A stretch of 45,108 nucleotides of DNA from Candidatus Hodarchaeota archaeon (GTDB taxonomy: Archaea > Asgardarchaeota > Lokiarchaeia > Sigyniarchaeales > SOKP01): positions 1 through 45,108 of the forward strand of contig JBHLKV010000003.1 of assembly GCA_048886305.1 (NCBI GenBank), given 5' to 3'. Positions 808 to 33,014 of the stretch are shown here, piece by piece; within the stretch, counting starts at the first letter, position 1, and the number at the start of each line of letters is the position of its first letter. The translations under genes and the position numbers were made by a program. The notes under the pieces were generated by a model. That model made no database searches. It was not told where the DNA came from and saw only the letters and a program-made list of their open reading frames with translations.

Positions 808-3003
808 TCACTCACTCCTTTGTTTACTTTTAAATTTAGAATAAAGCGCTTTATCTAACAATTTCCCTATTCTTTGGGCAATTTGTTTACCAATTTCATA
901 TCGTTCGCCATCAAGTAAATTTCTCATTGCTTCTGGAGAGGGATTATCCCCTAACCTTCTAAACAAGACATTTTTTGTAATTTCAATTACGATATCTTTA
1001 ATATTTACATAATCGGGTAATTTAATGCCGGGATTAAAGCTATTGATTTTCTCTACTGCAAATTGGAAAAATTGACTAAATAGCTCTATTGGGTCTCCTT
1101 TTAATTCACTATGAAGTTTTAAATTATCAGTAGCAATTTTTGTATCCTTTTCTTGCCAATATAACTGATTTGGATTGATACCAGGACTAGTTATTCTCAT
1201 GAGGGAACTTGTAATTCTACGTTCTATCCAATTTAAGGTACTTATTTCCTGTTTTTCACGTATTTCTTTCTTTTTTTCTTCTTCTTCTTTTTCTTTAGAT
1301 TTTATTATTTGTTCTACTTTTGATTTACGTTGTTCTTCGAACTCTTCAAACCTTTTGATTAAATCATATCCAATGCAGTAAGAAATTGGTGAGATTAGAT
1401 CTGGCTTTAACTTTAATTGCGAAATGCCGAAATATACATAGCTATTTTTCTCTCGTAATTCCATAATTCCCTGTCTTAATGGAATTCCCATCAATCGTGC
1501 CAATATAAAACCATTGACTAAAAATGGTTGATTATCCGCATTAAATACAATAACTAACTCTTCTTGTCTCTTATTTAATTTTTCTATTACTAATTCCTCT
1601 AACTTAACCTTAACCCATTCTTCAGAATCAGTAGTTCCAAATATTTTTCGTAAAGCTAGAAGAAATAAAGTTTTGTCATTTGAAATTTTAAGATATAGTT
1701 CAATAATTCGACTAAGTTGCCTTAATATTTTTGATAATATATAAAAAAAGATATCTTTCACTAACTTATCCATAATATCTTCAAATTCTAGGACAAATAA
1801 GATATGAGCATAGTTTTTTAATCCTAATTCCTTTAAAAAGATTTTATCAATAACCTGCTTTTTTCTCTGATCAGTTGGATTGATAAGATCATTCTTTGCT
1901 ATACTATATCTGACCAAATTTCTCCTTACTTCTTCAGTAACCGACTCGTCTATATTCATGAGGTAAAGGATATTATGGACTCCATATCTATTTAACGTAT
2001 AGATTAAATCATTAAAACTACATTCATTTAGACTTTGTAGAAAATAAATAAAATCATTTGGATTAATTTTTAATTGTTTAAATAACTCAGATTTTAAGAA
2101 GCTCACAATATTTTGTTCAAATTGTTCATAATTAATTTTTTCTTTAAGCGCATTTTCTATTCTTTTCAGTAGTTCTTTTTTAAGGTTGTTTGTTTCTTTA
2201 AAGATTTTTAATCCAGGAATAGAAATTGGAAACCGATCAAAGTTATAATCAAAGATTTTCCGTTTTATCATTCTAACCGGCATTGCCTGTACCTGAAGTT
2301 CTTTATATGATTTGAATTCAAAATCTTTTCGGATTTTGTCAATCATTCGTCCTAAGGTTGCTAATTCGATAAATTTATCTTCTTTCTCTTCTCTTTCTAA
2401 TTTTTTTTCAATTTCCAGTGATAAATCTTTAAAAGCTGAGCTTTCTTCTAAGATTTCTAATTTAGTTTCTTCAGTTAATCCTATCAAATCCCCTATTAAA
2501 TCATAAAAATAAAAAGGAGGGTATTTTAATATGATTTCTAATAATTCTTGTTCAACTTTTTGTTCAATTTCATTCAGCATTTGCTTCCTTTGAAAGTCTG
2601 GAAGTGTAGATTCTCTTTCTTCGATTAGGAATGATATAAATCTATTCTCTAAATCAAAAATCTTATTTAAAACCCCAATTTCTAAAATAAATGAATCTTT
2701 TAATAACGTACCGACTTCTTCTATTAAAATCTTTTTCTCAATTTGTTCTAAATTTTGTGCTGCCTCAAAGGAAAATTTATCTTGTTCTAAGGTTTCTTTA
2801 ACTCTAATACCTAAATTGTGATAAATGTGAATTACAGCTGTAGCAATTAATAGGTCTTTGAAAGTGGTTTTTTGACTTGTTAATTCGAAAATTTTTTGCT
2901 TATCAGCATCTCTCTTAAAATGGGAAATAATTAAATCTACAGTTTGAAAAAATCTAAATGTACTTTCAACGGCAGTTGTTTTTCTTTTTATCCCACTAAT
3001 CAT
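808..3003 (-). CDS. large uncharacterised all-helical protein (731 aa), translationally coupled to the upstream 768-aa gene
   Basis: Long uninterrupted ORF. I place the start at the ATG at 3003 (M6 of the track ORF), which forms an ATGA start/stop overlap with the TGA (3002..3000) of the upstream gene and follows a GGAG. The sequence is K/E-rich and helical, including KEKEEEEKKKE. No P-loop, nuclease, methylase or metal-binding motif seen. Confidence 0.6.
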   Translation of the reverse strand: MISGIKRKTTAVESTFRFFQTVDLIISHFKRDADKQKIFELTSQKTTFKDLLIATAVIHIYHNLGIRVKETLEQDKFSFEAAQNLEQIEKKILIEEVGTLLKDSFILEIGVLNKIFDLENRFISFLIEERESTLPDFQRKQMLNEIEQKVEQELLEIILKYPPFYFYDLIGDLIGLTEETKLEILEESSAFKDLSLEIEKKLEREEKEDKFIELATLGRMIDKIRKDFEFKSYKELQVQAMPVRMIKRKIFDYNFDRFPISIPGLKIFKETNNLKKELLKRIENALKEKINYEQFEQNIVSFLKSELFKQLKINPNDFIYFLQSLNECSFNDLIYTLNRYGVHNILYLMNIDESVTEEVRRNLVRYSIAKNDLINPTDQRKKQVIDKIFLKELGLKNYAHILFVLEFEDIMDKLVKDIFFYILSKILRQLSRIIELYLKISNDKTLFLLALRKIFGTTDSEEWVKVKLEELVIEKLNKRQEELVIVFNADNQPFLVNGFILARLMGIPLRQGIMELREKNSYVYFGISQLKLKPDLISPISYCIGYDLIKRFEEFEEQRKSKVEQIIKSKEKEEEEKKKEIREKQEISTLNWIERRITSSLMRITSPGINPNQLYWQEKDTKIATDNLKLHSELKGDPIELFSQFFQFAVEKINSFNPGIKLPDYVNIKDIVIEITKNVLFRRLGDNPSPEAMRNLLDGERYEIGKQIAQRIGKLLDKALYSKFKSKQRSE

Positions 3004-5306
3004 AGCTCCTTTAACCACTCCCGATATACTTCTTTAAAATTATCTGCTAATTCAAATCTAGAATTAGTATGCCAAAACTTAAAGCTTAATACGTGAAAAA
3101 GATCTCCCCCAAACAATTCTTTTTCTTCGCTTGTTAAATTGTGTTTTAAAATTAGAGTTAATGGTCTAGGAATCAATTTTGAAAAATATTTTAATTCCAT
3201 CTCTTTGATATAATCATAAAAATGGTCCTCACCATTTAGATTAAAAAAGTTAATAGGAACTTGCTCTTCAAATTGAGGGTTAAGTATGCTCATTTCTTGT
3301 TTGATTCTATTATTAACATACTTCGGAAATTCAGTACTAATATTCATGCTTAAATCATATTGCTTGTAAAAATCAATTAATAAATCCCTTTCCTCAATAT
3401 TCGATATCCGAGCAATATATGTATCCAAAAATTTTAAAAAATGCTCAAACTTCTGCTCATTTGATTCTCTTTCTTCAAAATAGCTAATAAAATCATTGTA
3501 TATCTCGTCTAAAGTCCATTCTTTTCTTTCTTCTAAATTAAAGAATTTTTTGTTATAATCACTTAACCATTCCAAAATATAAGATTTCCAGGTTAAATTT
3601 ATTCCCCCTATTCTTTTTTCTAAAAAGCGATGAAATCTCGTAGCAAAAGTAACTGGATCGGCTATTTCTTTATCAGGTTCTTCTTTGATATACCTATTAA
3701 TTGTTGTATACCTAAGAATATAGCTTAGGAGATAAGATAATTCACTCGAAAATGTCTTAAATCTATCAATATGCTCTCTTATAGTGTTAATATCTTTTTC
3801 CATTTGTATTTCCGCAAAAGACACTAAATCTCCTATCTCTAGTTTTATGTTATCAAAAAATGGCTCTAAATTTGTATTAATTAATCTCCTAAACTCTCTT
3901 ATTATATTTTCTTCATTGAATTTGAGAACTCCTGATAAAACCATTGGATTAACTTCAATTTGGCTAAGAATATGATCTTTAAACTTGTCTATTAATTTCT
4001 GACCAAGGACTTTCGCTGGTTTTTGTTCATCTTCGAATTTTTGTTTTAAATTTTTTGTTAAATCAACAATTAAGGATTTTAGCCTCCTACGCGAGAGATA
4101 TTTTGGAAGAGATGCTTTAACCAAATTCAGACTACTTGTAATAATTTCTGAAAAATAATTAAAGATCGAGCTTAAATCTATTGCTCTTAAGTTTTCTTGC
4201 GCAATTGCTGATTGCTTAATTGTTTTAATCGCTAAATTACTAATATCTTCAAAATCTTCATTTTCAAATTTTGCTTTATTTACAATAAACTGTTTATATT
4301 TTTTTGATAGTTCATCCAGATCTCCAATTTCTCCAGTTGTAAGAAAAGAGTTAGAATATTCAATGAACTTATTCAAATATCTTTCTAAATCAATTAAAAT
4401 TTTATTAATAAAGGAAATTAACGATTTTGCTGGGCAAGGATCATTTAAGTTTTGTATATTTTTTTTAGTATAGTTAATAATGAATGAGATTATTCTATCT
4501 TGAGATTCATCAATTGTACCTGTATTTGCTAAATTAATTAGATTTGTTCCTAACTTTAAGGTTTTATCCACTATAAAATTAGCACTAGGCTCTGATATAG
4601 AATATTTAATATGGTCGATGGATTGCTGCCCCTCATAAGGGCTTTTTAGTCTATCGAATTTTGAATTGAAAAGATTAATCTCATATGGTCGCTTGTGTAA
4701 TAATATATCTACATCTGATTTGACTCTTGCATATGTATTCAACATTTCTTTTTCTGTTGGAAGGGAAGCACTTATACCGATTAATTTTTTATTCCATTTA
4801 TCTTCAATTATTTCTCCAAAGAGTTTTTTGCTGAATCTAGTGGCAAATCTTTTATATACCTGTTGTTTGTCATCATTTTTTAAATCAGGTCGATCGGTAA
4901 ATTCTTCTACTTCAAAAAATAATTTACTTATCTTATTTATCGCTTCATGAGATTTATGGGCATCTAAATATCCCGTTTCAGGCTTTAATGCAAGTAATAA
5001 ACTTTCACAGTCTTTATATTTACCAGGTATGAAAATCATTGATTTTGGAAAAATATTTACTCGAGCACTTTTCTCATCGAGATTATACAATTCAAATTCG
5101 ATACTAAAAACTTCTGAACCAGTATAATCTCTTAAAATTGCATTATACATCCTTAAATATTCTATAACTCCCTGGGAAAGTTCATTAACTTTTTCTCGAG
5201 TTAATTTTCCCGGACCAATTACATCTCCTACAATGATGTCGTTTGGAGAAGAATATCCATATATTAGTGAAAATTGATAATTGATTGATTCTCGTGTAGT
5301 AATCAT
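3000..5306 (-). CDS. large uncharacterised protein (768 aa): alpha/beta N-terminal domain with a longin/roadblock-like strand-helix pattern, then about 600 aa of helical sequence
   Basis: Long ORF with an ATG start. N-terminus: YQFSLIYGY / IIVGDVIGP (two strands), TREKVNELSQGVIEYLRMYNAILRDY (helix), EVFSIEFELY / ARVNIFPKSMIFIPG (strands). The rest is helical. No enzymatic motif recognised. The fold call is pattern-based only. Confidence 0.55.
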   Translation of the reverse strand: MITTRESINYQFSLIYGYSSPNDIIVGDVIGPGKLTREKVNELSQGVIEYLRMYNAILRDYTGSEVFSIEFELYNLDEKSARVNIFPKSMIFIPGKYKDCESLLLALKPETGYLDAHKSHEAINKISKLFFEVEEFTDRPDLKNDDKQQVYKRFATRFSKKLFGEIIEDKWNKKLIGISASLPTEKEMLNTYARVKSDVDILLHKRPYEINLFNSKFDRLKSPYEGQQSIDHIKYSISEPSANFIVDKTLKLGTNLINLANTGTIDESQDRIISFIINYTKKNIQNLNDPCPAKSLISFINKILIDLERYLNKFIEYSNSFLTTGEIGDLDELSKKYKQFIVNKAKFENEDFEDISNLAIKTIKQSAIAQENLRAIDLSSIFNYFSEIITSSLNLVKASLPKYLSRRRLKSLIVDLTKNLKQKFEDEQKPAKVLGQKLIDKFKDHILSQIEVNPMVLSGVLKFNEENIIREFRRLINTNLEPFFDNIKLEIGDLVSFAEIQMEKDINTIREHIDRFKTFSSELSYLLSYILRYTTINRYIKEEPDKEIADPVTFATRFHRFLEKRIGGINLTWKSYILEWLSDYNKKFFNLEERKEWTLDEIYNDFISYFEERESNEQKFEHFLKFLDTYIARISNIEERDLLIDFYKQYDLSMNISTEFPKYVNNRIKQEMSILNPQFEEQVPINFFNLNGEDHFYDYIKEMELKYFSKLIPRPLTLILKHNLTSEEKELFGGDLFHVLSFKFWHTNSRFELADNFKEVYREWLKEL

Positions 5307-22847: not shown

Positions 22848-23102
22848 TTAAATATCCCCCTCTATCTCTCTCCTGAACTTAATTCCTTTTTCCGTTAAAA
22901 AGTGTTCTCCTTTAATCTTCTTAATTAATTTTAAATCACGTAAAACAGGAATTCTCCCTTTAATACAAGAAATTGGCAATCCAGAAAACAATTTAATTGT
23001 TTCGTAATTCTTTGCTCCCTTATCAATGGCAAGTAATATCTCAATTCCCATATATCCTAAGAGATATTTCAAGTCATCATACGATTCTACTTCATTAGAC
23101 AT
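22848..23102 (-). CDS. small winged-helix (wHTH) protein
   Basis: 84 aa. GIEILLAIDKGAKNYETIKLFSGLPISCIKGRIPVLRDLKLIKK follows a helix-turn-helix plus wing pattern. It starts 21 nt downstream of the NPRL2-like gene on the same strand. Confidence 0.5.
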   Translation of the reverse strand: MSNEVESYDDLKYLLGYMGIEILLAIDKGAKNYETIKLFSGLPISCIKGRIPVLRDLKLIKKIKGEHFLTEKGIKFRREIEGDI

Positions 23103-23123: not shown

Positions 23124-24260
23124 TTATTTTGACTTATCTTTTTTGGATTCTTTAGGTAATAATTTTCTCATCCACTCTGGAAAGGCAGTAGTTATACGTA
23201 GATTTGTTTTTAAAACAACATACCGTTCATTATTATAATTTAACTCTTCGATTACATCATATTCTTTTAAATATTCTATGTTTTCCATTAGAGAATCTAA
23301 AGTTTTCTTAGACAATAATTTAGGTAATTTATCTCTTGAAATTAAACTATTGCGTAATTCAGAAAGAACATTATACTTTTTAGAATCTGCCATTATTTGA
23401 AATAAAATATAGGAATCTTTTTTTAGCTCTGCTTCTTTCTTTTTTTCATATTCACTAAAATATTCTTGAACCTTTGGAAGTAGCAAATCTATTAACTCTG
23501 GTTTGTCATCAATATATTCTATTACACTATCGGGTGGAATTCTCTCTGCATTTACTTCTTTTAATAGAAGTACATACTTTTCTACTAAGCCAATTTGATT
23601 TATAATAAGAATTTGCTTCTCAACCAATGTATTGATTATTTCTTCGAATTCTTTATTAGGAAAATTTTCAATAAACCATTCTTTTAGTTCTTCTAGTTCT
23701 ACCGGACCTTTTGAGAGTTTTTCTAAGGTTTTAAAAATATGCTCATTATTTATTAGAATTGCTATTTTCTGTTCTTCAGTTTTTTCTCGTGTTTCTTCCA
23801 TTATTGCCCAATATAGGTTCTTTACCCATGCTTTTATTAAAGAATTGTTTTTTATTATCTTTTCAACATCTTCTTCATGATAGTCTTTCTCATTTATGTA
23901 AAAACCTGTAAAGATCTCCTCATTTGATTGTAAACTTTCTGAAAATTCTGTACACAAATTAGCAATAATTTCCTCAATCGAAGGTGCAATTTGTTGATCA
24001 AGTATTACTGAAAACATTAACATTTCCTTATTACCACGAGCCCAATCAGAGTGAATTTCAAAATAATAATTTAATGATTTTAAATTTTCAAAAGAGTGTG
24101 TAAAAAAACCTTCATTAAATTGTTGGTCCATAATATTAGCTATTTTAACTTCTAATTCCTTCTCTAACGTATCTTTGGGATAAGAATAGAATATTAAGGG
24201 CCCAATCTTCCTATGGAAATAAGAAAGCGTAACGGTTGTTTTCAAATAATGAATCTCCAT
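23124..24260 (-). CDS. longin-domain plus tandem winged-helix protein, NPRL2/Npr2-like (GATOR1-subunit-like), tentative
   Basis: 378 aa (human NPRL2 is 380 aa as I recall). The N-terminus TLSYFHRKIGPLIFYSYPKD matches remembered NPRL2 [20 protein letters not shown] at F15, H16, G20, P21, I23, Y25, P28 and D30. WARGN (R75) lines up with NPRL2 YSRN (R78, the Arg finger). Two C-terminal wH-like units follow (IFKTLEKLSKGPVELEEL...LVEKQILIINQIGLVEKYVLL and YNVLSELRNS...YLKEYDVIEELNYNNERYVVL). Confidence 0.5.
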   Translation of the reverse strand: MEIHYLKTTVTLSYFHRKIGPLIFYSYPKDTLEKELEVKIANIMDQQFNEGFFTHSFENLKSLNYYFEIHSDWARGNKEMLMFSVILDQQIAPSIEEIIANLCTEFSESLQSNEEIFTGFYINEKDYHEEDVEKIIKNNSLIKAWVKNLYWAIMEETREKTEEQKIAILINNEHIFKTLEKLSKGPVELEELKEWFIENFPNKEFEEIINTLVEKQILIINQIGLVEKYVLLLKEVNAERIPPDSVIEYIDDKPELIDLLLPKVQEYFSEYEKKKEAELKKDSYILFQIMADSKKYNVLSELRNSLISRDKLPKLLSKKTLDSLMENIEYLKEYDVIEELNYNNERYVVLKTNLRITTAFPEWMRKLLPKESKKDKSK

Positions 24261-24460
24261 GGATATTTTTTCTTTTTACAAATAATACAGTTATTTTTAG
24301 GTCTAATAACTCAAAATAAATTAAATATTAAAGATTATATATTCTTAAAGATAAATAAATTTATCTTATTTAAACATCTATTAACAATAGTTTAGTAATA
24401 AATAGAATCAATTTATTATATTGATTTTCTAAAACATAATGGAAATTTCTACTTAATAGT

Positions 24461-25204
24461 ATGAACAATAATAAAGTTAAATTAGTTGGATTTGATTTAG
24501 ATGATTGCCTATTCGATTCAACTGCCCTTTCTGAAAGAGCTAGAATAAAAGGAATAGATGCGATGATAGATTTAGGTCTAAAAATTGATAGAACGAAGGC
24601 TATTATAAAAATCCAAGATATTGTAAAAGAATACGGATCTAATTTTTCTAAACATTACAATTACTTTATTCGACGATTAAATGAATTTGAAAATTATAAA
24701 ATATCCAGTAATGATAAGTATAAATATATTGCTGCTGCGGTAATAGCTTATCATCAAGAAAAAATTGATTCTATAAAATTATATGACGATGTAAAACCAT
24801 GTTTGGAAAAATTAAGAAGTATGGGAATTAAAACTGCTATTATTAGCGATGGTATCCCCATTAAACAATATGAGAAGATATTAAGACTTAACATTGATAG
24901 CTTATTAGATTTAGTAGTAATCTCAGATGAAATCGGAATTAAGAAACCAAATCCAAAATTATTTGAATACTGTTTAAAGAAATTTGATGTTAAAGGTTCA
25001 GAGACTATTTATATAGGAGATCGAATAGATAAAGACATTATTCCAGCACGTTTAAATGGTATTTATACTATTTATATTCATCGGGGAGGTAAATATGATA
25101 CGTATGAAAAAAGGAACGAAATTTCTGACGAATTAGTACCTAACTATGAGATATCAGATTTGAATGAAATTTTTGATTTAATAATTGAAATAAATAATAA
25201 ATGA
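24461..25204 (+). CDS. HAD-superfamily hydrolase (subfamily IA-like)
   Basis: Motif I FDLDDCLFDS, motif II TAIISDG, and motif IV GDRIDKDI with an upstream K (IKKPNP). Confidence 0.8.
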   Translation: MNNNKVKLVGFDLDDCLFDSTALSERARIKGIDAMIDLGLKIDRTKAIIKIQDIVKEYGSNFSKHYNYFIRRLNEFENYKISSNDKYKYIAAAVIAYHQEKIDSIKLYDDVKPCLEKLRSMGIKTAIISDGIPIKQYEKILRLNIDSLLDLVVISDEIGIKKPNPKLFEYCLKKFDVKGSETIYIGDRIDKDIIPARLNGIYTIYIHRGGKYDTYEKRNEISDELVPNYEISDLNEIFDLIIEINNK

Positions 25205-25224: not shown

Positions 25225-26040
25225 ATGAGAGTTGCTTGCATTCAACCCGAAATATTTCAAAGTAGAAATAACTGTTATTTTGAAGTAGAAGAATTAATAA
25301 AAAGATTGTTAGAAGATGCAAATAATTGCGACATTATATGTTTGCCAGAAAGATGGGTACCTGTCTATACAAATTCGGCTAAAAATTTCCAAAAAGAAAA
25401 AGGAGATGATTATCTATTTATTAAAAATTTAGCTAATGAATATCATATAAACATTTTATCAGGAGGAATATGGGAGAAACGGGATAATTTGAAAAAACCA
25501 CATATTACCTGCTATTTTTTTAATGAAAGAGGTGAAGAAGTAGATCGCCAAGATAAAATTCATCTCTATTCTTATGAACGAGAACAATTTGAACCAGGAA
25601 ACGTTTTAAAATTATTTAAATTAAATACATATCATTTTGCTATCCTTATTTGTTTTGACATGGCTTTTTTTGAGACTCCTAGATTAGCTGCTGAGAATGG
25701 TGCTGATCTTTTACTTTCTCCCACTCAAATTAGGCTGGAAGGAATGGATAATTGGGATACTTATTTGAAAGCACGGTCTCTTGAGAATAGAATTCCTATT
25801 GCTGCTTGTAATACTTTTGGAACGTTTTTCAGAAGGAAATTTATTGGAAAAAGCAAAATAATTTCTTTCATTGAAGGAAATATTTCACCATCGAAACTTA
25901 AAATAGTTGAAGCTCCTTCTAATTTAAATGGGTATATTTTTGATGATATTGATTTAGATTTTCCAAAAAAGTTAAGGAAAATTCGATTTAAGGAAAAAAT
26001 TGAAAAAAGTAAAATTGAAGTGAAAAATGTAAATAGCTGA
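25225..26040 (+). CDS. carbon-nitrogen hydrolase (nitrilase superfamily amidase)
   Basis: E-K-C triad contexts: ICLPERW, DKIHLY and AILICFD. Confidence 0.75.
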   Translation: MRVACIQPEIFQSRNNCYFEVEELIKRLLEDANNCDIICLPERWVPVYTNSAKNFQKEKGDDYLFIKNLANEYHINILSGGIWEKRDNLKKPHITCYFFNERGEEVDRQDKIHLYSYEREQFEPGNVLKLFKLNTYHFAILICFDMAFFETPRLAAENGADLLLSPTQIRLEGMDNWDTYLKARSLENRIPIAACNTFGTFFRRKFIGKSKIISFIEGNISPSKLKIVEAPSNLNGYIFDDIDLDFPKKLRKIRFKEKIEKSKIEVKNVNS

Positions 26041-26092: not shown

Positions 26093-27043
26093 TTGTTTTT
26101 TTTGGAATTGAAGATTTTGTTATGTGGTCTTGAAGATGCTGGAAAAACCTCAATTTTATTAGTTTTAGATAAAAAATTTAGTTTATTAACATCAGTTGCA
26201 CCTACTATCAAAGCTAAAAGAACATCACACACTAACAAGCTTTTAGGCATCTCTACCACACGTTGGGACTTAGGTGGGCAAAAAGCTTACAGAAAAATAT
26301 ACTTAGACAATAAAAGTAAATATTTTACTGAAATGCAATCAATTTTTTACATAATTGATATTCAAAATAAAGATAAATTTGATGAGGCACTAATTTATCT
26401 TAAAGATATTACAAATATTATTACAGATAATCATCCAGATAACTTTCAATTATTAATTCTATTTCATAAATATGACCCTGACATTAAAAACAAAGAAGAA
26501 ATGAAAGATAATATCCACTTTTTAGAAAATAAAATTAATTCAATAATTAAAAAACTAAAGTACTCTTTTTATAGGACTTCTATTTATGATGATTCTAGCT
26601 TAATAAAAGCATTTTCAGATGGTGTATTCTCAGCTACAGAGAAATCAAAATTATTACAATCATTATTAAGAGATTATATGAGTAAAACATACACCAGTTC
26701 TACTCTTCTCTTAGATCAAAATTGTTTCATAATTGCTAGTAGAGCTACCAACGAAGCTTATCAAGAAATTTGTGAAGCAATTGCTCCCAGATTAACAAAT
26801 GCATTAGAAAAATTAGAAGAATGGGATATTGATACGAACGATATAATAACAAATATCGAATTTCCTCAAAATAGTGTAGAGCAATCTAGAGAAGGTATCA
26901 TTTTTTTAAGAAAATTAGAGATAAATAATGATAGATTATATCTTATTGCTCTTTGTTTAAATAAAAGGATTCAAAACAAATCCTATGAGTATCTCCCAAT
27001 ATTAGCTTCAAATCTAAAGAATTTATTAGAAAGTTTTGAATAA
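26093..27043 (+). CDS. Rag/Gtr1-family small GTPase with a C-terminal roadblock domain
   Basis: G1 GLEDAGKTS, G3 WDLGGQ, and G4 as HKYD (Rag-type HKxD rather than NKxD). The family-specific YRTSIYDDSSLIKAFS matches remembered RagA FRTSIWDETLYKAWS. It is followed by about 130 aa with a roadblock-like pattern (TLLLDQNCFIIAS...GIIFLRKLEINNDRLYLIALC). The TTG start at 26093 could instead be one of the in-frame TTGs a few codons downstream (26102 or 26108). Confidence 0.75.
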   Translation: MFFLELKILLCGLEDAGKTSILLVLDKKFSLLTSVAPTIKAKRTSHTNKLLGISTTRWDLGGQKAYRKIYLDNKSKYFTEMQSIFYIIDIQNKDKFDEALIYLKDITNIITDNHPDNFQLLILFHKYDPDIKNKEEMKDNIHFLENKINSIIKKLKYSFYRTSIYDDSSLIKAFSDGVFSATEKSKLLQSLLRDYMSKTYTSSTLLLDQNCFIIASRATNEAYQEICEAIAPRLTNALEKLEEWDIDTNDIITNIEFPQNSVEQSREGIIFLRKLEINNDRLYLIALCLNKRIQNKSYEYLPILASNLKNLLESFE

Positions 27044-27180: not shown

Positions 27181-28371
27181 ATGATTGTTGAATCAAATAA
27201 TCTTAATGGATATGTCGGACCAAAAGCGATATTTGATCCAAATTATATACCCCCTCAATTATTATATAGAGAAAAAGAAGAAAAATCATTATACTCTATT
27301 TTAAATGATTCAATTGCAGATAAATTTTATCTTAATATATTGTATCAAGGAATTCAAGGAATCGGCAAAAAAGTTATCGTTAATAAAGTTTTGAATGATC
27401 TATTAATTAAAAATAGGGAATTAACAAATATTAATAAAATTTGCATTGATTGTAAAGAAAAGACTCTTGAAGATTTAATTTTTTCAATTTTAACAGAATT
27501 AAATCATTTTTCAAATATTAACTTTAATTTTAATTCAATTTTAACATCGAAGATTTCTCATTTATGGAATATGATTAAATTAGCATGTAAAAAAATAAAT
27601 TGCAATCTTTTCTTTTTATTTTATAATATTGAATGTTTACAGCCAGAAATCTATAAGAAATTTCTGCATTTTGGAAAAGAAACAAATATAACATTGATTT
27701 CTACTGTAAATAAAATTTTAAAACCTTCTACTCTCGATTTATTAAGTGAATTTGATCTAAAAAAAAGATTAGAATTTTTTAGCTATAATGAGTTATACTC
27801 CATTCTTAAACAACGAGTGTCCCTTACATTTACTCATGAAATAGATAAAGAATTAATTAGATATATAACAGATCTAATTTGTGAACATTATGTACCTGTT
27901 CCAGGAAAAGGTATTGAAATACTAAGAGATATATATCCGTTATTAATGGATAAGAAAAATTTCAAACATTATGAATTGATTGATATATGCCAACATGAAT
28001 TCGATTCAATTCAGATTGCTGATGAATTTAGTATTCTTAATTATGTTTCTGAAGAAGATCTTTTAACAATAATATTTTTTGACAATTTATCAAACTATTT
28101 CTTGAAAAAATTGAAATATTATATTTCTTTAAATGAATTAAAGGAATTATATGATATTTCTTGTGAATCTTTAGAATACAAAAAAAGTAGTAACGAATTC
28201 AACAAATTAATTAAAAGATTACTAAGTTTTGGGATTTTAAGTGGTTCAAAGAGAAATCAGATCAAAATGAAACCTTATTTATTAAATAATGCTTCGAATT
28301 ACGATTACTTCTTCATGGCATTAAACCCAAAACACCTAAAAGCTATAGTAGATGCAATATTTAATAAATAA
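27181..28371 (+). CDS. Orc1/Cdc6-like AAA+ protein with degenerate Walker motifs and a C-terminal winged helix
   Basis: The N-terminal YIPPQLLYREKEEKSLYSIL matches the Orc1/Cdc6 opening (P..L..RE.E). Walker A is GIQGIGKK, lacking the S/T after the Lys. The expected hhhhDE Walker B position reads FFLFYNIECL. The C-terminus NEFNKLIKRLLSFGILSGSKRNQ is wH-like. Confidence 0.5.
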   Translation: MIVESNNLNGYVGPKAIFDPNYIPPQLLYREKEEKSLYSILNDSIADKFYLNILYQGIQGIGKKVIVNKVLNDLLIKNRELTNINKICIDCKEKTLEDLIFSILTELNHFSNINFNFNSILTSKISHLWNMIKLACKKINCNLFFLFYNIECLQPEIYKKFLHFGKETNITLISTVNKILKPSTLDLLSEFDLKKRLEFFSYNELYSILKQRVSLTFTHEIDKELIRYITDLICEHYVPVPGKGIEILRDIYPLLMDKKNFKHYELIDICQHEFDSIQIADEFSILNYVSEEDLLTIIFFDNLSNYFLKKLKYYISLNELKELYDISCESLEYKKSSNEFNKLIKRLLSFGILSGSKRNQIKMKPYLLNNASNYDYFFMALNPKHLKAIVDAIFNK

Positions 28372-28559: not shown

Positions 28560-31500
28560 TTGACATATATTAAAAAAATCTCTATGACTGGTTTCAAATC
28601 ATTTGGCGAGCGGACAGTAACAATCAAATTTTCGAGTGGTTTCACATGTATTGTTGGACCAAATGGTGCAGGGAAATCTAATATTATAGATGCATTATGT
28701 TTTGCTTTAGGTAGATTAAGTAAGAAAACGATGAGAGCAAAAAGTTTGGAAGACCTTATTTTTGCTGGTGCTAAAGGAAAAAATCCTTCTACTAGAGCTT
28801 CTGTAACAATGTATTTTGATAATTCAGAAAATGTATTTCCTGGTGGTACTGATACATTCGAAATAACAAGGACTATTAAAAAGGGTGGTGGCGGGGGATA
28901 TAAAATGAATGGTCAAAAATCTACTCGTCAACAGATTCTCAATGCTTTAGCAGCAGCTAATGTAGATCCAGATGGTAGTAATCAATTCGTTCTTCAAGGT
29001 AAAATTGTTGAATTAACTCATATGAATGCTGAAGAAAGAAGATTATTCATTGAAGAATTAATTGGACTTCAGAAATACGATGAAATGAAAGATGCCACAT
29101 TAAAAGAGTTAGAAAAAGCAGAAAGAGATTTAGGACAATTTGAAGCAATTTTTAAAGAAGTTTCTGCCCAGCTTAAAAAAGTTGAAAAAGAAAAAAATGA
29201 TGCGTTAGCTTGGAAAGAATTAGATGAGCAAATTAATCTCTTAAATTCAAAATTAATTGCATTAAAAATTTCAAAATTACGAGAGGAAGAAGATGAATTA
29301 GAAAAAAAGATGGAAGAATCTTCAAAAATTATTGAAGAACTGCAAGAAAAGATCTCTCGACAAGAAGATATACTGAAACAAGAATCATTAGTTATGGAGA
29401 ATATTCAGAAAACAATTACGGATAGAGAAAAGGAAAGAGAAGAAATAAACGAAAACATAACAAATTTAAAGACACAATTATCTTCAAGTCAAACTACTTC
29501 TGATTTAGCTAGAAAATCAATAGATAAACTAACACAAGAAATAAAAAATTTAGAGAATTTACTAATGGCACTCGAGGAAGGACAAACTTATGATTCTTTA
29601 ATACAAGATGTATCTAGTCAAATTTCTGACTGTGAAAATCAACTCGAAACAGCTAAAAAAGAAATTGAAAGAAGACAACAAAACCAATCTGAGTTTGATA
29701 TAAAAATTAAAAATAATGAAGATGAAAAATCACAATTTAAAGCGGAAATATCAAAAGTACAACAAAATATCTCATCAAATAATACCCAGATAAAACTTCT
29801 TAGAGAAAGTATAAAAAAGAATGAAGAAAAGAAAATTAAATTAGAAACTGAATTGAATAAATTGAAACGAGAAGCTGATAGTATAGATGAAGCTATTGAT
29901 GAGGCAAAAAAAACTGAAAAACAAATTAGAAAGACGATTGAAGATTTAAAATCTAAAAACAATGAAGAAAATCAAAAACAAAAAGATTTAGAAGCTAACA
30001 TTAATACTCTTCAAGAAGAAAAAAATCAACTAAATGCAAAATCAGTTCTTCTACAATCTACATTATCATCTTTGAATACTGAAATTAGTATGAATAGAAA
30101 TACAATCCAAGATTTAAATGATAAAAAAGTATCTTTTGAGAATAAAATTAGAGAATTAAGTAAAGGTAAAGACACAGAAGAAGTCGTAAAAGGTTTATTG
30201 AAAGAAAATGATAATATTAATAAACAATTGAGTGAATTAAAAACAGCTTTGAAAAAAGAAAACTCCGCATTCAGGAGCAATGAACAAAATCTAGAATTAT
30301 TAAAGATGAAACGATATTCATTTGATTCAGAAATTCATGATAATAATGCGAAAATAGACAATATTAATACAGAATCAAAAATATTTAAAAAAGAATTAAC
30401 TAAATTGGAACGTGAGAAGGGAAATTCAGAAGTGCAAATCAATTCTCTAAAAAGCAATCTATCAAAAATAGAAAAGGATAATGAAAATTTTACTTCTAAA
30501 AGTCAGAACATTCAAAGACGCTTAGAGGAACTTACAAAAGAAAGAGATAATTTGTTAGAAAAAATTGAATCTTCTGAAGAAGAATATGAGAAAAATACCC
30601 GAGACATAACTGGAATTCTTCAAATTTTAAATATGCTTACTCAAAATATTAACATTTCTGTTGAATCTATTAAAAGTAACATCCAATTATCAAATGCAGA
30701 AGCAATAGAATCCTCTGCTGAAGATTTCAAAAAGTTTATTCTCGATATTGTAGATATCATGAAAAGTGTTGAGGGGATTGGTACGGATACTGATCAATCC
30801 ACTGAAATGTCAGACATGTTAAATTCTATCCTCCGAACTTTAAAATTATTTACTGACAATGCAGATTCAACAATTGATCAATTAATTAGTAGAGTCAAAG
30901 AATCTGCTGACGTAGAAGTACAAGAATCAACCTCAACATTTGATAGTTTTGTACAGGATTTAATGGAAATTCTTGAAAATGTTTATATTTCATTAAGAAA
31001 ATTAACATTATCAAAAAGTCAAGATTTATATAAGCAACTAGAAGATATCTCTGAAAATATTAAATCACAAGGTGGTGATCTTAATAGTGCGGAGAAAAAA
31101 TTGTCAGAATTAAATCTTCAAGAAGCGCATAATTCAGAAACCTTATCAACATTAACTAGAAGACTTGAAGAAATTAACAGTAGAAATAAGGAATTAAATG
31201 AAAGAATTAAAAATTCTGACATAGAAATTGAAGAAAGAAAGAAACAAGTCGATGAGAAGCAAAAAGAAACAGAAAAATTAGATATTGAGATAAATAAACT
31301 TAAAGAACTAAAAGATACTTACTGGGAAAATATTTCAAAGATTCAAGATGATATTGATAAAAAACAAAAAGATTTAGAAGATTTAAGAGAAAATCTTCAA
31401 GAATTGCACGGAATTCAAAGTCTTTTTGAAAATATTACAGAAATTGACAATGACATTGGAAAGTTAAATAACATTATAGAGGAAAAGAAAAATTTAATTA

Positions 31501-33014
31501 TCAACACAGAAGAAAACATAAATCAAATTCACGCAGAACAAGCTACCTTACAAAATAAAATTGAAGCTTTGATTTTAGAAAAAGAAAAATTCTGGGAAAA
31601 AACAGAAAATTTAAGAATACAAATTGACAAGGAAAATGAGTCACTAGAAGATACAATGGATCGCCTAAGAGCACTTGAAAATGTGATGAGAATTATTAAT
31701 TCGATTGAGGATATTAAGAAAGAAAATATAGATGCTAATGGTAAAATTGAACTTTGTCATACTAATATTGAAAAATTCAATTCTCAAGTAGACGAAATTC
31801 AAAAAAATGTTGATAAAAAACAACAGACTATAGATTCCTTGAGAAATGAAAAGACTAAAGAAGTAGAATTACAGAAAGCAGCTCAAAAAGAATTAAATAA
31901 ATTAAATAAGGATTTACAAAAATATCAGCGTCAAATTAACGAGCTAAACAAAAATAAGGAAAGAGAACAAAAAATTACAGAATTAAATCAAGAGATTAAA
32001 GATACTGAAAAACAAATAGAATCAATTTTGGAAGAGTTAGAGCAATTTAAGGAACAGCTTAATAATGAAAATGAAAAAAAGGATGAAAAACAAAAAGAAA
32101 TTGATGAATTCAATCTGAAAAAAGACGAATCATGGAAAAAGCAAAAGCAATATCAAAAAATCTTAAATGATTTAAAATCAGATCTTTCGATGGAAAATGC
32201 GAAAATAAATAATTATGAATCTAAAAAAATTATTTGTACTGATCAAATAGAGACTCTATTCCAGAGATCAAAAGAATATGGTTCACTCCCTACTGTTACC
32301 GAGGATTTAACAGAAGCAGAATTACAATCAGATATTGGGGATGTAACAACGAAGAAAAAAGCTCTTGAACCAGTCAACTTAAAAGCTATTGAACAATATG
32401 ATGCTGTAAAAGAGAGATTCGATGAGATTGATATGCGAAGACAAACTATTCAACGTGAACGCAAGTCGATCTTAGACGCAATAGATAAAATAGAACTTGA
32501 GAAGACAAGAACTTTCATGAAAGCCTACCATGAAATAAACAGAGAGTTCAGTAGAATTTTTCAGAAGCTTAGTCCTGGCGGTTCGGCTAAAATGATCCTA
32601 GATCGTCCTGATAAACCCTTTGAAGGAGGAATCAGTATCGAAGCACGACCTCGTGGAAAGAAAATATCAAGTCTAGAAATTCTTAGTGGGGGTGAAAAAA
32701 CACTTGTGGCGCTCTCATTTATTTTTGCTGTTCAAGAATTTTATCCTGCGCCCTTTTACATTATGGATGAGATTGATGCAGCCCTCGATGGTCCTAATGT
32801 GCACAGAGTTAGTATGGTAATCAAAGAATTTGCATCTCAAGCTCAATTTATGGTAATAAGTCATCGTGAGGAAAACATTGTTAATGCCGATAGAATCTAT
32901 GGAGTTTCAATGCAACAAAGCGGGATCACAGATATCTTTAGTGTTGATTTGGAAGAAGAAGCTAAAAGACTTTTAGAACTTGAAGATATTGAACCTACCA
33001 TTACAGAAAATTAA
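28560..33014 (+). CDS. smc: SMC-family chromosome segregation ATPase, unusually long (1484 aa), with no recognisable hinge
   Basis: Head motifs: FKSFG, Walker A GPNGAGKSN, QGKIVELTHMNAEERRLFIEELIG, signature LSGGEKTL, Walker B FYIMDEIDAALD, D-loop/H-loop ...VISHRE. The TTG start at 28560 has GGAGAT 6 nt upstream, and the N-terminus YIKKISMTGFKSFG requires this start. It lies directly upstream of scpA and scpB. Confidence 0.85.
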   Translation: MTYIKKISMTGFKSFGERTVTIKFSSGFTCIVGPNGAGKSNIIDALCFALGRLSKKTMRAKSLEDLIFAGAKGKNPSTRASVTMYFDNSENVFPGGTDTFEITRTIKKGGGGGYKMNGQKSTRQQILNALAAANVDPDGSNQFVLQGKIVELTHMNAEERRLFIEELIGLQKYDEMKDATLKELEKAERDLGQFEAIFKEVSAQLKKVEKEKNDALAWKELDEQINLLNSKLIALKISKLREEEDELEKKMEESSKIIEELQEKISRQEDILKQESLVMENIQKTITDREKEREEINENITNLKTQLSSSQTTSDLARKSIDKLTQEIKNLENLLMALEEGQTYDSLIQDVSSQISDCENQLETAKKEIERRQQNQSEFDIKIKNNEDEKSQFKAEISKVQQNISSNNTQIKLLRESIKKNEEKKIKLETELNKLKREADSIDEAIDEAKKTEKQIRKTIEDLKSKNNEENQKQKDLEANINTLQEEKNQLNAKSVLLQSTLSSLNTEISMNRNTIQDLNDKKVSFENKIRELSKGKDTEEVVKGLLKENDNINKQLSELKTALKKENSAFRSNEQNLELLKMKRYSFDSEIHDNNAKIDNINTESKIFKKELTKLEREKGNSEVQINSLKSNLSKIEKDNENFTSKSQNIQRRLEELTKERDNLLEKIESSEEEYEKNTRDITGILQILNMLTQNINISVESIKSNIQLSNAEAIESSAEDFKKFILDIVDIMKSVEGIGTDTDQSTEMSDMLNSILRTLKLFTDNADSTIDQLISRVKESADVEVQESTSTFDSFVQDLMEILENVYISLRKLTLSKSQDLYKQLEDISENIKSQGGDLNSAEKKLSELNLQEAHNSETLSTLTRRLEEINSRNKELNERIKNSDIEIEERKKQVDEKQKETEKLDIEINKLKELKDTYWENISKIQDDIDKKQKDLEDLRENLQELHGIQSLFENITEIDNDIGKLNNIIEEKKNLIINTEENINQIHAEQATLQNKIEALILEKEKFWEKTENLRIQIDKENESLEDTMDRLRALENVMRIINSIEDIKKENIDANGKIELCHTNIEKFNSQVDEIQKNVDKKQQTIDSLRNEKTKEVELQKAAQKELNKLNKDLQKYQRQINELNKNKEREQKITELNQEIKDTEKQIESILEELEQFKEQLNNENEKKDEKQKEIDEFNLKKDESWKKQKQYQKILNDLKSDLSMENAKINNYESKKIICTDQIETLFQRSKEYGSLPTVTEDLTEAELQSDIGDVTTKKKALEPVNLKAIEQYDAVKERFDEIDMRRQTIQRERKSILDAIDKIELEKTRTFMKAYHEINREFSRIFQKLSPGGSAKMILDRPDKPFEGGISIEARPRGKKISSLEILSGGEKTLVALSFIFAVQEFYPAPFYIMDEIDAALDGPNVHRVSMVIKEFASQAQFMVISHREENIVNADRIYGVSMQQSGITDIFSVDLEEEAKRLLELEDIEPTITEN

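Follow-up and report, generated by a model that had tools for sequence, protein, structure and literature searches.

GATOR1 switches off the Rag GTPases, which report amino-acid supply to TORC1, and the time at which this machinery originated is open. The locus described here raises the question whether longin-type GTPase-activating proteins (GAPs) for Rag GTPases predate eukaryotes. It lies on contig JBHLKV010000003.1 of assembly GCA_048886305.1, assigned to Candidatus Hodarchaeota archaeon in the class Lokiarchaeia, of which positions 1 to 45,108 were analysed; this whole stretch of 45,108 nucleotides (nt) is called the window. Its minus strand carries an open reading frame (ORF) of 378 aa, called the target here, which an initial annotation made from the sequence alone had read as an archaeal homologue of the GATOR1 subunit NPRL2. 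The ORF is present, and the analysis gave its fold, the conservation of two motifs, the domain fusions of its relatives and its gene context. The structure search and the conservation of a candidate catalytic arginine supported the homologue interpretation, GAP activity being a prediction. With roughly even confidence, we favour the reading that the target is an Asgard NPRL2-like protein whose GAP-type longin face serves to regulate a small GTPase.

Fold and sequence of the target compared with NPRL2

The AlphaFold2 model used here was computed from an alignment of 46 sequences, divergent relatives included, and had a mean predicted local distance difference test score (pLDDT) of 87.4 and a predicted template-modelling (TM) score of 0.73. 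A model from 20 close orthologues, with a pLDDT of 50, was discarded. In the accepted model a longin domain leads into a long helix, after which come two winged-helix (wH) units, in agreement with the domain order given in the initial annotation. The longin strands span residues 8-16, 20-27, 51-57, 60-70 and 78-87 and its helices residues 34-45 and 93-112, in the order strand-strand-helix-strand-strand-strand-helix. The second wH unit, like the first, is built of four helices followed by a beta-hairpin or sheet, so that the C-terminal four-helix/two-strand winged-helix repeat, a trait of NPRL2/Npr2, is present twice in the model. In NPRL2 and NPRL3, repeats of a four-helix/beta-hairpin winged helix have been described behind the longin domain (PMC3747258, PMC5681675).

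A Foldseek search of the model against the PDB returned eight matches at E <= 1e-3. The four best came from GATOR1 entries with NPRL2 among their subunits and were chains 362-370 residues long (9v0j_A, 9o5a_H, 9o5d_D and 7t3b_B), with E from 5e-6 to 8e-5 over 297-412 aligned columns (9v0j_A, E 4.9e-6 and 297 columns; 9o5a_H, 324 columns). We take these four chains to be NPRL2, judging by their length, by verified NPRL2/Npr2 chains and by the chain order in 7T3B, where chain E is RagC. Next came yeast Npr2 (8adl_S, identity confirmed, and 9h4q_T), the FLCN-FNIP2 chain 6ulg_N and 7t3a_B, followed by NPRL3-sized chains, FLCN, 6ces_N (confirmed as NPRL2) and DENN proteins, and then by the longins of Lst4, SRX and VAMP7. 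The E-values for NPRL2 were better than those for FLCN/FNIP2 chains by one to three orders of magnitude. The structure search thus gave significant matches, and the best of them were NPRL2/Npr2 and not another longin family. In addition, the winged-helix part alone matched ArsR, SmtB and HlyU locally, and the entire protein matched CodY weakly.

The human NPRL2 sequence used for comparison was identical to PDB chain 6ces_N across all 380 residues. Target residues 14-30 (YFHRKIGPLIFYSYPKD) align with NPRL2 14-30 without a gap and share F15, H16, G20, P21, I23, Y25, P28 and D30, and all eight identities named in the initial annotation were verified in this way. BLASTP placed target residues 9-36 on NPRL2 9-36 with 11 of 28 positions identical (E 6e-4, single comparison). 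When a family profile of 80 domains was aligned by hhalign with a vertebrate NPRL2 profile, residues 3-38 fell on 3-38 with a score of 34 and a probability of 52%, whereas 150 column-shuffled NPRL2 profiles scored 13.3 +/- 2.4 with a maximum of 20.2, so the N-terminal match exceeds chance. The NPRL2 profile was shallow (effective number of sequences ~1.5), with only vertebrates of at least 75% identity in the NPRL2 homologue search, which limits the hhalign tests. At the level of sequence, the N-terminal similarity to NPRL2 is real but short, at about 36 residues.

Residue numbers here follow the 378-aa listing and not a shorter form of 373 aa. A conserved GGAG lies ahead of the TTG codon of L6 (nt 24245) in the window, and in most orthologues a TAA stop interrupts the five leading codons and the protein begins at the residue that matches L6. 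These two features argue that the true protein probably has 373 aa and begins at the TTG at 24245; if so, the identical residue numbering in NPRL2 would be a coincidence. The listed ATG (window 24243..24260, minus strand) is probably unused. The window as a whole is AT-rich, with a GC content of 24-35%.

The nearest relatives of the target, at no more than 96% protein identity, come from metagenome-assembled genomes (MAGs) titled Promethearchaeota (Lokiarchaeia). A collection clustered at 90% identity held 558 relatives, all unnamed or 'hypothetical', of which the top 120 were at least 75% identical, and a profile search of a library clustered at 50% matched 469 proteins. The family was found in 197 species-level genomes, and the best 80 of these were nearly all titled Promethearchaeota/Promethearchaeia or 'uncultured archaeon'. 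The protein is strongly conserved, with 75-80% identity over many species. With the single target sequence as query, Pfam, NCBIfam and the PDB sequences gave nothing useful. One contig with this Asgard gene cluster (locus L079, DATKTW010000128.1) is assigned to a MAG titled 'Candidatus Nanopelagicaceae bacterium', probably through a binning error.

Motifs and relatives of the longin domain

Two motifs stand out in the longin domain. G20-P21 is situated between strands 8-16 and 20-27 and is aligned with G20-P21 of NPRL2, and R75, the candidate arginine finger of the initial annotation, lies in the loop between strands 4 and 5. Conservation was counted in 94 domain copies from representatives clustered at 50% identity, and F15 was kept in 93, G20 in 93, P21 in 92, S71 in 91, R75 in 88, G76 in 85 and E79 in 89. 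Both R75 and G20-P21 are invariant among the closer orthologues (18-20 sequences for R75). The GP motif has been reported in the GAP-type longins of SMCR8, C9orf72, FLCN and NPRL2 and is absent from FNIP2, NPRL3 and longins of the guanine nucleotide exchange factor (GEF) type (PMC12290439), and R78 of NPRL2 is located on a longin loop (PMC8534245). Judging by the topology of the model, the strand 1-2 turn with G20-P21 and the strand 4-5 turn with R75 would lie on one edge of the longin sheet, and GAP longins have been described with their GP-motif and arginine loops arranged likewise (PMC12290439). R75 is named here as a candidate equivalent of NPRL2 R78, on the basis of loop topology and a low-confidence alignment.

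On the precedents of NPRL2, FLCN and SMCR8 (PMC12290439, PMC8534245), one may picture how the target would dimerise, bind a GTPase and catalyse hydrolysis through R75, and which client it would serve. The longin domain, probably dimerised with a second longin, would dock on a G domain, and the G20-P21/R75 face would meet the nucleotide pocket. R75 would then stimulate GTP hydrolysis, as do NPRL2 R78, Npr2 R84, FLCN R164 and SMCR8 R147. The wH array, extended by a small winged helix-turn-helix (wHTH) protein, would serve assembly, comparable to the C-terminal domains of NPRL2 and NPRL3, and perhaps DNA binding. In the clade of the window the most likely client would be a Rag-like GTPase encoded 1.8 kb away.

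The N-terminal domain, about 150 residues long, is a mobile module that occurs alone, in tandem with a second and divergent longin, or with a C-terminal module of the target type. Among 88 relatives, 15 have an Arf/Ras-type G domain fused to the longin domain, and the GP motif and the arginine are kept in 15 of 15. Other fusion partners are PAS, GAF, histidine-kinase ATPase (HATPase_c) and TPR domains. In P0207, P0218, P0230 and others the longin with GP and Arg stands N-terminal to an Arf-like G domain, which in some is followed by PAS, GAF and histidine-kinase ATPase domains; in Rag GTPases the order is reversed, with the roadblock domain at the C-terminus. In the tandem proteins P0219, P0179, P0216, P0236 and P0239 the first copy is divergent and lacks GP and Arg and the second has both, and these proteins resemble a fused catalytic/non-catalytic longin pair of eukaryotic GAP complexes. 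A further group from Jord-, Frey-, Odin- and Helarchaeia (P0251, P0238, P0402-P0408) has the same double wH module, preceded by a longin-like domain in which GP and Arg are missing. The P0251-type proteins were considered as an NPRL3-like partner and rejected, being from other Asgard classes and more likely counterparts of the target.

Several results weigh against the NPRL2-like reading. Solved structures were not found by sequence in the PDB, neither with the single sequence nor with a profile of close orthologues. The global TM-scores to NPRL2 were low (0.34-0.36, root-mean-square deviation >12 A), which indicates a match domain by domain and not of the rigid-body arrangement. The target had no match to Pfam NPR2 (PF06218) at E <= 1, nor was this family among the top 25 for the 88 relatives (E <= 0.01) or for 80 isolated domains (E <= 10), although PF06218 was found in all vertebrate NPRL2 sequences; the Pfam check proposed in the initial annotation thus came out negative. 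The annotation had also set R75 opposite R78 and aligned the helices that follow. Forced extension in hhalign did reproduce this, with SDWARGN on KKYSRNA and the next helices aligned, but the posterior confidence was near zero. The loop itself differs, since the family consensus is W-A-R-G-x-K-E and the target reads Arg-Gly-Asn, whereas Npr2/NPRL2 use an Arg-Asn pair (PMC12999518). Alignment of the C-terminal half with the NPRL2 C-terminal domain gave an hhalign score of 14.8, which was equalled by 25 of 80 shuffles, so the resemblance in that half is one of fold and architecture only. In the 45-kb window no paralogue or NPRL3-like partner was found, and no DEPDC5-like partner turned up, DEPDC5 itself not having been searched for. 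The linkage to a Rag-like gene also has gaps: in a sister clade (62-71% identity) the gene was present in 1 of 26 loci with enough flank and absent within 10 kb in most, and it was missing from the P0125 locus, whose orthologue is 47% identical.

In a possible but doubtful alternative, the likeness is convergent. The target would then be a general Asgard longin with GP and Arg, equally related to FLCN, SMCR8 and NPRL2, combined with winged helices gained separately from archaeal ArsR/TrmB-type regulators, and not a specific NPRL2 orthologue. Consistent with this, the weak Pfam matches of the isolated domains were only the DENN-type families Afi1 and Folliculin and not NPR2, and similarity to NPRL2 was not detected in the C-terminal sequence. 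The second wH of the Jord-, Frey-, Odin- and Helarchaeial homologues scored above the Pfam cut-offs for HTH_20, HTH_5 (ArsR), TrmB and TFIIE_alpha, which marks the C-terminal module as recognisably of the archaeal DNA-binding wHTH type, and the pairing of this module with a longin that lacks GP in these classes, like the varied fusion partners of the GP/Arg longin, also speaks for this alternative. On the other side, Foldseek placed full-length NPRL2 first, with about 300 columns over both halves and ahead of FLCN/FNIP2, and the N-terminal segment is in register with NPRL2 in a profile test that covered NPRL2 profiles.

A second alternative accepts the GTPase and drops the catalysis. The longin dimer would act as an exchange factor, effector or scaffold, and the arginine and the Gly-Pro would serve structure or binding. 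Longin/roadblock dimers are mostly GEF platforms and occasionally GAPs (PMC10933270, PMC3747258), the loop W-A-R-G-x-K-E has no counterpart of the Npr2 Arg-Asn pair (PMC12999518), and a GAP fused to its own substrate G domain, as the 15 fused relatives would be, is an odd switch design. We nevertheless consider such a non-catalytic platform unlikely, as the top structural matches are GAP subunits and the GP motif, reported for GAP-type and not for GEF-type longins (PMC12290439), is near-invariant in this family together with the arginine.

Gene neighbourhood and the intergenic palindrome

The context of the target was examined in 80 species-level loci (62-96% identity) and in the loci of six more distant orthologues, all scanned with profiles. 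The features of the window are listed in Table 1.

Table 1. Positions of the target, its domains and motifs, and the neighbouring features in the window
Feature	Position	Strand	Basis
Target ORF, 378 aa	23124..24260	-	ORF list
N-terminal longin domain, residues 1-125	23886..24260	-	AlphaFold2 pLDDT ~90; Foldseek NPRL2/Npr2, FLCN, Lst4, VAMP7 and SRX longins
G20-P21 (GP motif), loop before strand 2	24198..24203	-	Family alignment; motif defined in PMC12290439
Loop S71-D-W-A-R75-G-N77, strands 4-5	24030..24050	-	AlphaFold2, hhalign, family alignment
R75 codon, candidate arginine finger	24036..24038	-	Strand 4-5 loop
Linker with long helix, residues 129-157	23781..23885	-	AlphaFold2
Winged-helix unit 1, residues 161-243; four helices then beta-hairpin/sheet; acidic, net -6	23532..23780	-	AlphaFold2
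Winged-helix unit 2, residues 244-360; core 293-360 mildly basic	23181..23531	-	AlphaFold2
C-terminal tail, conserved F-P-x-x-x-R-K-L-x-P-x-E, then basic low-confidence end	23127..23180	-	Orthologue alignment, AlphaFold2
Small wHTH gene, 84 aa, 21 nt downstream of target	22848..23102	-	Pfam HTH_45 E 4.9e-5, just below cut-off
Palindrome AAGATAAAT-TT-ATTTATCTT, 20 nt, 9-nt arms; on the target side then AATATATAATC (to ~24330)	24348..24367		Cross-species alignment
HAD-family hydrolase gene, divergent neighbour	24461..25204	+	Profile scan of loci
Carbon-nitrogen hydrolase gene, between HAD and Rag-like genes	25225..26040	+	Gene context
Rag/Gtr1-like GTPase gene, G domain and C-terminal extension, candidate client	26093..27043	+	Pfam Gtr1_RagA E 6.4e-27

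The Rag-like GTPase named in the initial annotation was confirmed by its Pfam match and by its matches among PDB sequences, which were Asgard Rag-like GTPases, Gtr1 and RagA. Its gene lies within 4 kb of the target in all 34 species of the window's clade (at least 74% identity). A Rag-like gene is also present in one locus slightly under the flank cut-off (L080), and near the target, with other genes intervening, in the loci of two distant orthologues (P0127 and P0128, 43% and 40% identical), where the GTPases are 34-35% identical to that of the window over their full length. Rag linkage as a feature of the whole family was rejected on the counts of the locus scan. The linkage is patchy and inseparable from ordinary synteny, and we regard it as suggestive. 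Asgard GTPase genes generally lie outside operons with longin genes (Tran et al.), and for this reason even a partial linkage is useful for the choice of a client.

The partner genes on either side of the target were far more constant. In 73 of 74 loci the next gene downstream, on the strand of the target, was the wHTH gene, and in two species the target and the wHTH form a single ORF (L057, 9962-11428; L068, 1396-2886). These fusions argue that the two proteins work together, with the wHTH as a third winged helix. No terminator-like site was found between the two genes by a sigma-70-type promoter scan, the promoter part of which is inapplicable to an archaeon, and the wHTH gene is likely a co-transcribed partner of the target. 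The HAD hydrolase gene was divergent from the target in 75 of 75 loci with enough flank.

The target and the HAD gene are divergently transcribed, and midway between their starts, in an intergenic region of 215 nt, stands a palindrome. It is kept across species at 62-96% protein identity while its flanks drift. The window has one such site, and 40 loci each contain a single copy of the exact 18-mer. A relaxed form of the core was found upstream in 66 of 86 loci, compared with 6 matches in 1.41 Mb elsewhere. The idea of a palindrome regulon was rejected. Of 120 metagenome matches, 41 were this same locus; the other 79 were unrelated in their flanks and composition and look like chance occurrences of an AT-rich 20-mer. 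Wherever a metagenome match joined the palindrome to the TATA-like run, whether exactly, with a single mismatch or truncated at the contig end, it was at the same locus. The palindrome may serve as an operator or be a bidirectional core promoter of archaeal type, with TATA box and B recognition element.

This arrangement invites a reading of the target as mainly a transcription regulator, in which the longin is a sensor or partner-binding module and the second wH unit and the wHTH bind the palindrome, so controlling their own operon and that of the HAD and carbon-nitrogen hydrolases, possibly with the Rag-like gene. In that case the likeness to NPRL2 would stem from building blocks in common and not from a common function. 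The target-wHTH pair, divergent from the HAD operon at every locus with enough flank and occasionally fused, is in keeping with this, as are the conserved palindrome midway between the genes, the helix-turn-helix matches of the second wH in distant homologues, the local Foldseek match of the wH part to ArsR/SmtB/HlyU and the weak one to CodY (sensor plus wHTH), and the name ArsR-family regulator given to an orthologue by one source. We think both the regulatory role and this account of the likeness improbable. The target is acidic (net -17, isoelectric point 5.1), as is its first wH unit, and the core of the second and the small wHTH carry no more than a slight positive charge, at +2 each; the target's own wH units match no Pfam HTH family. 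The palindrome is AT-rich with a TATA-like run alongside, so that its place midway between the genes would equally suit a bidirectional core promoter, and it has neither a second site in the window nor an extended metagenome match at another locus. A transcription regulator also leaves the near-invariant GP and Arg motifs and the G-domain fusions unexplained. A compound of the two ideas, in which the target and the wHTH would form a DNA-binding regulator whose longin reads or sets the state of a Rag- or Arf-like GTPase and couples this switch to transcription through the palindrome, the winged helices of NPRL2/NPRL3 would be left over from an archaeal transcription factor, and signalling of the Rag/GATOR1 type would have begun as a one-step gene-control circuit before TOR, seems to us quite improbable.

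Two other gene pairs were observed in the window. A divergent Orc1/Cdc6-like gene (27181..28371, weak NCBIfam/Pfam matches) lies directly upstream of a gene for a 1484-aa SMC protein (28560..33014), and the pair is syntenic in close relatives. On the minus strand, 808..3018 and 3000..5306 are overlapping ORFs of 736 and 768 aa with no Pfam match, and one of the compared loci (L002) has unannotated ORFs of 795 and 768 aa near the target, similar in size to this pair.

Known systems and the meaning of the family

Taken as an NPRL2-like protein, the target is closest to human NPRL2 and yeast Npr2, the catalytic subunit of GATOR1/SEACIT. It shares with them a similar size, the longin with repeated winged helices, the Gly-Pro before strand 2, the loop arginine, the best Foldseek matches and about 36 N-terminal residues in register. 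It differs in having no Pfam NPR2 match, no C-terminal sequence similarity, another domain arrangement and an Arg-Gly-Asn loop; no NPRL3 or DEPDC5/Iml1 partner was identified (DEPDC5 was not searched for), and it has the additional wHTH partner and the upstream palindrome. FLCN-FNIP2 and C9orf72-SMCR8 are likewise GAP complexes, built as longin heterodimers, with the GP motif and an arginine finger, with significant Foldseek matches (6ulg, 8dhb), but their C-terminal halves are DENN domains where the target has winged helices. Regulators of the ArsR/TrmB type and CodY share the wH fold by Foldseek, the helix-turn-helix matches of the distant homologues, and divergent genes with an intervening palindrome; the target, in contrast, is acidic, has no match to an HTH family, and carries an N-terminal GAP-type longin in place of a GAF or metal-sensing domain.

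Within Asgard archaea, NPRL2-like longins fused to two-component domains have been reported (Liu et al., 10.1101/2020.10.19.343400). The class 'NPRL2-like longin domain' among the Asgard clusters of orthologous genes (asCOG) defined there is used as an annotation class in PMC9834061. The target family shares with this class its Asgard origin, the NPRL2-type longin and relatives with two-component signalling domains, and by this comparison the target almost certainly belongs to it. The distribution differs, as the full NPRL2-like organisation was described in most genomes of Thor and in a few of Loki (10.1101/2020.10.19.343400), whereas the family studied here was found in 197 species genomes, the best 80 of them nearly all Promethearchaeota. 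Asgard longins of the FLCN/SMCR8 type (PMC12290439) have both motifs in the same structural elements and a proposed GAP-like role on Arf-related/Rag GTPases; unlike the target, with its double wH and NPRL2 as best match, they are mainly from Heimdallarchaeia and annotated as Folliculin/SMCR8-like.

Asgard NPRL2-like proteins and longins are thus already published (2020/21), and so is the combination of the GP motif with an arginine finger in Asgard longins (2025). Our literature search turned up no experimental work on Asgard NPRL2-like or GP/Arg longins. Four details appear to be new: the full-length NPRL2-like fold shown by a widespread Lokiarchaeial family, the wHTH partner and its fusions, the palindrome, and the clade-limited Rag linkage. 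As the general idea has been published, the value of the family lies in a specific testable system and not in a new concept. Crystal structures are available for related Lokiarchaeial proteins of the class to which its Rag-like neighbour belongs (8zla, 9m28, 8yl2), and the family offers a compact test case in vitro for the question posed at the outset, whether longin-type Rag GAPs predated eukaryotes. In addition, the constant wHTH partner and the palindrome raise the question of the original role of the winged helices in NPRL2 and NPRL3.

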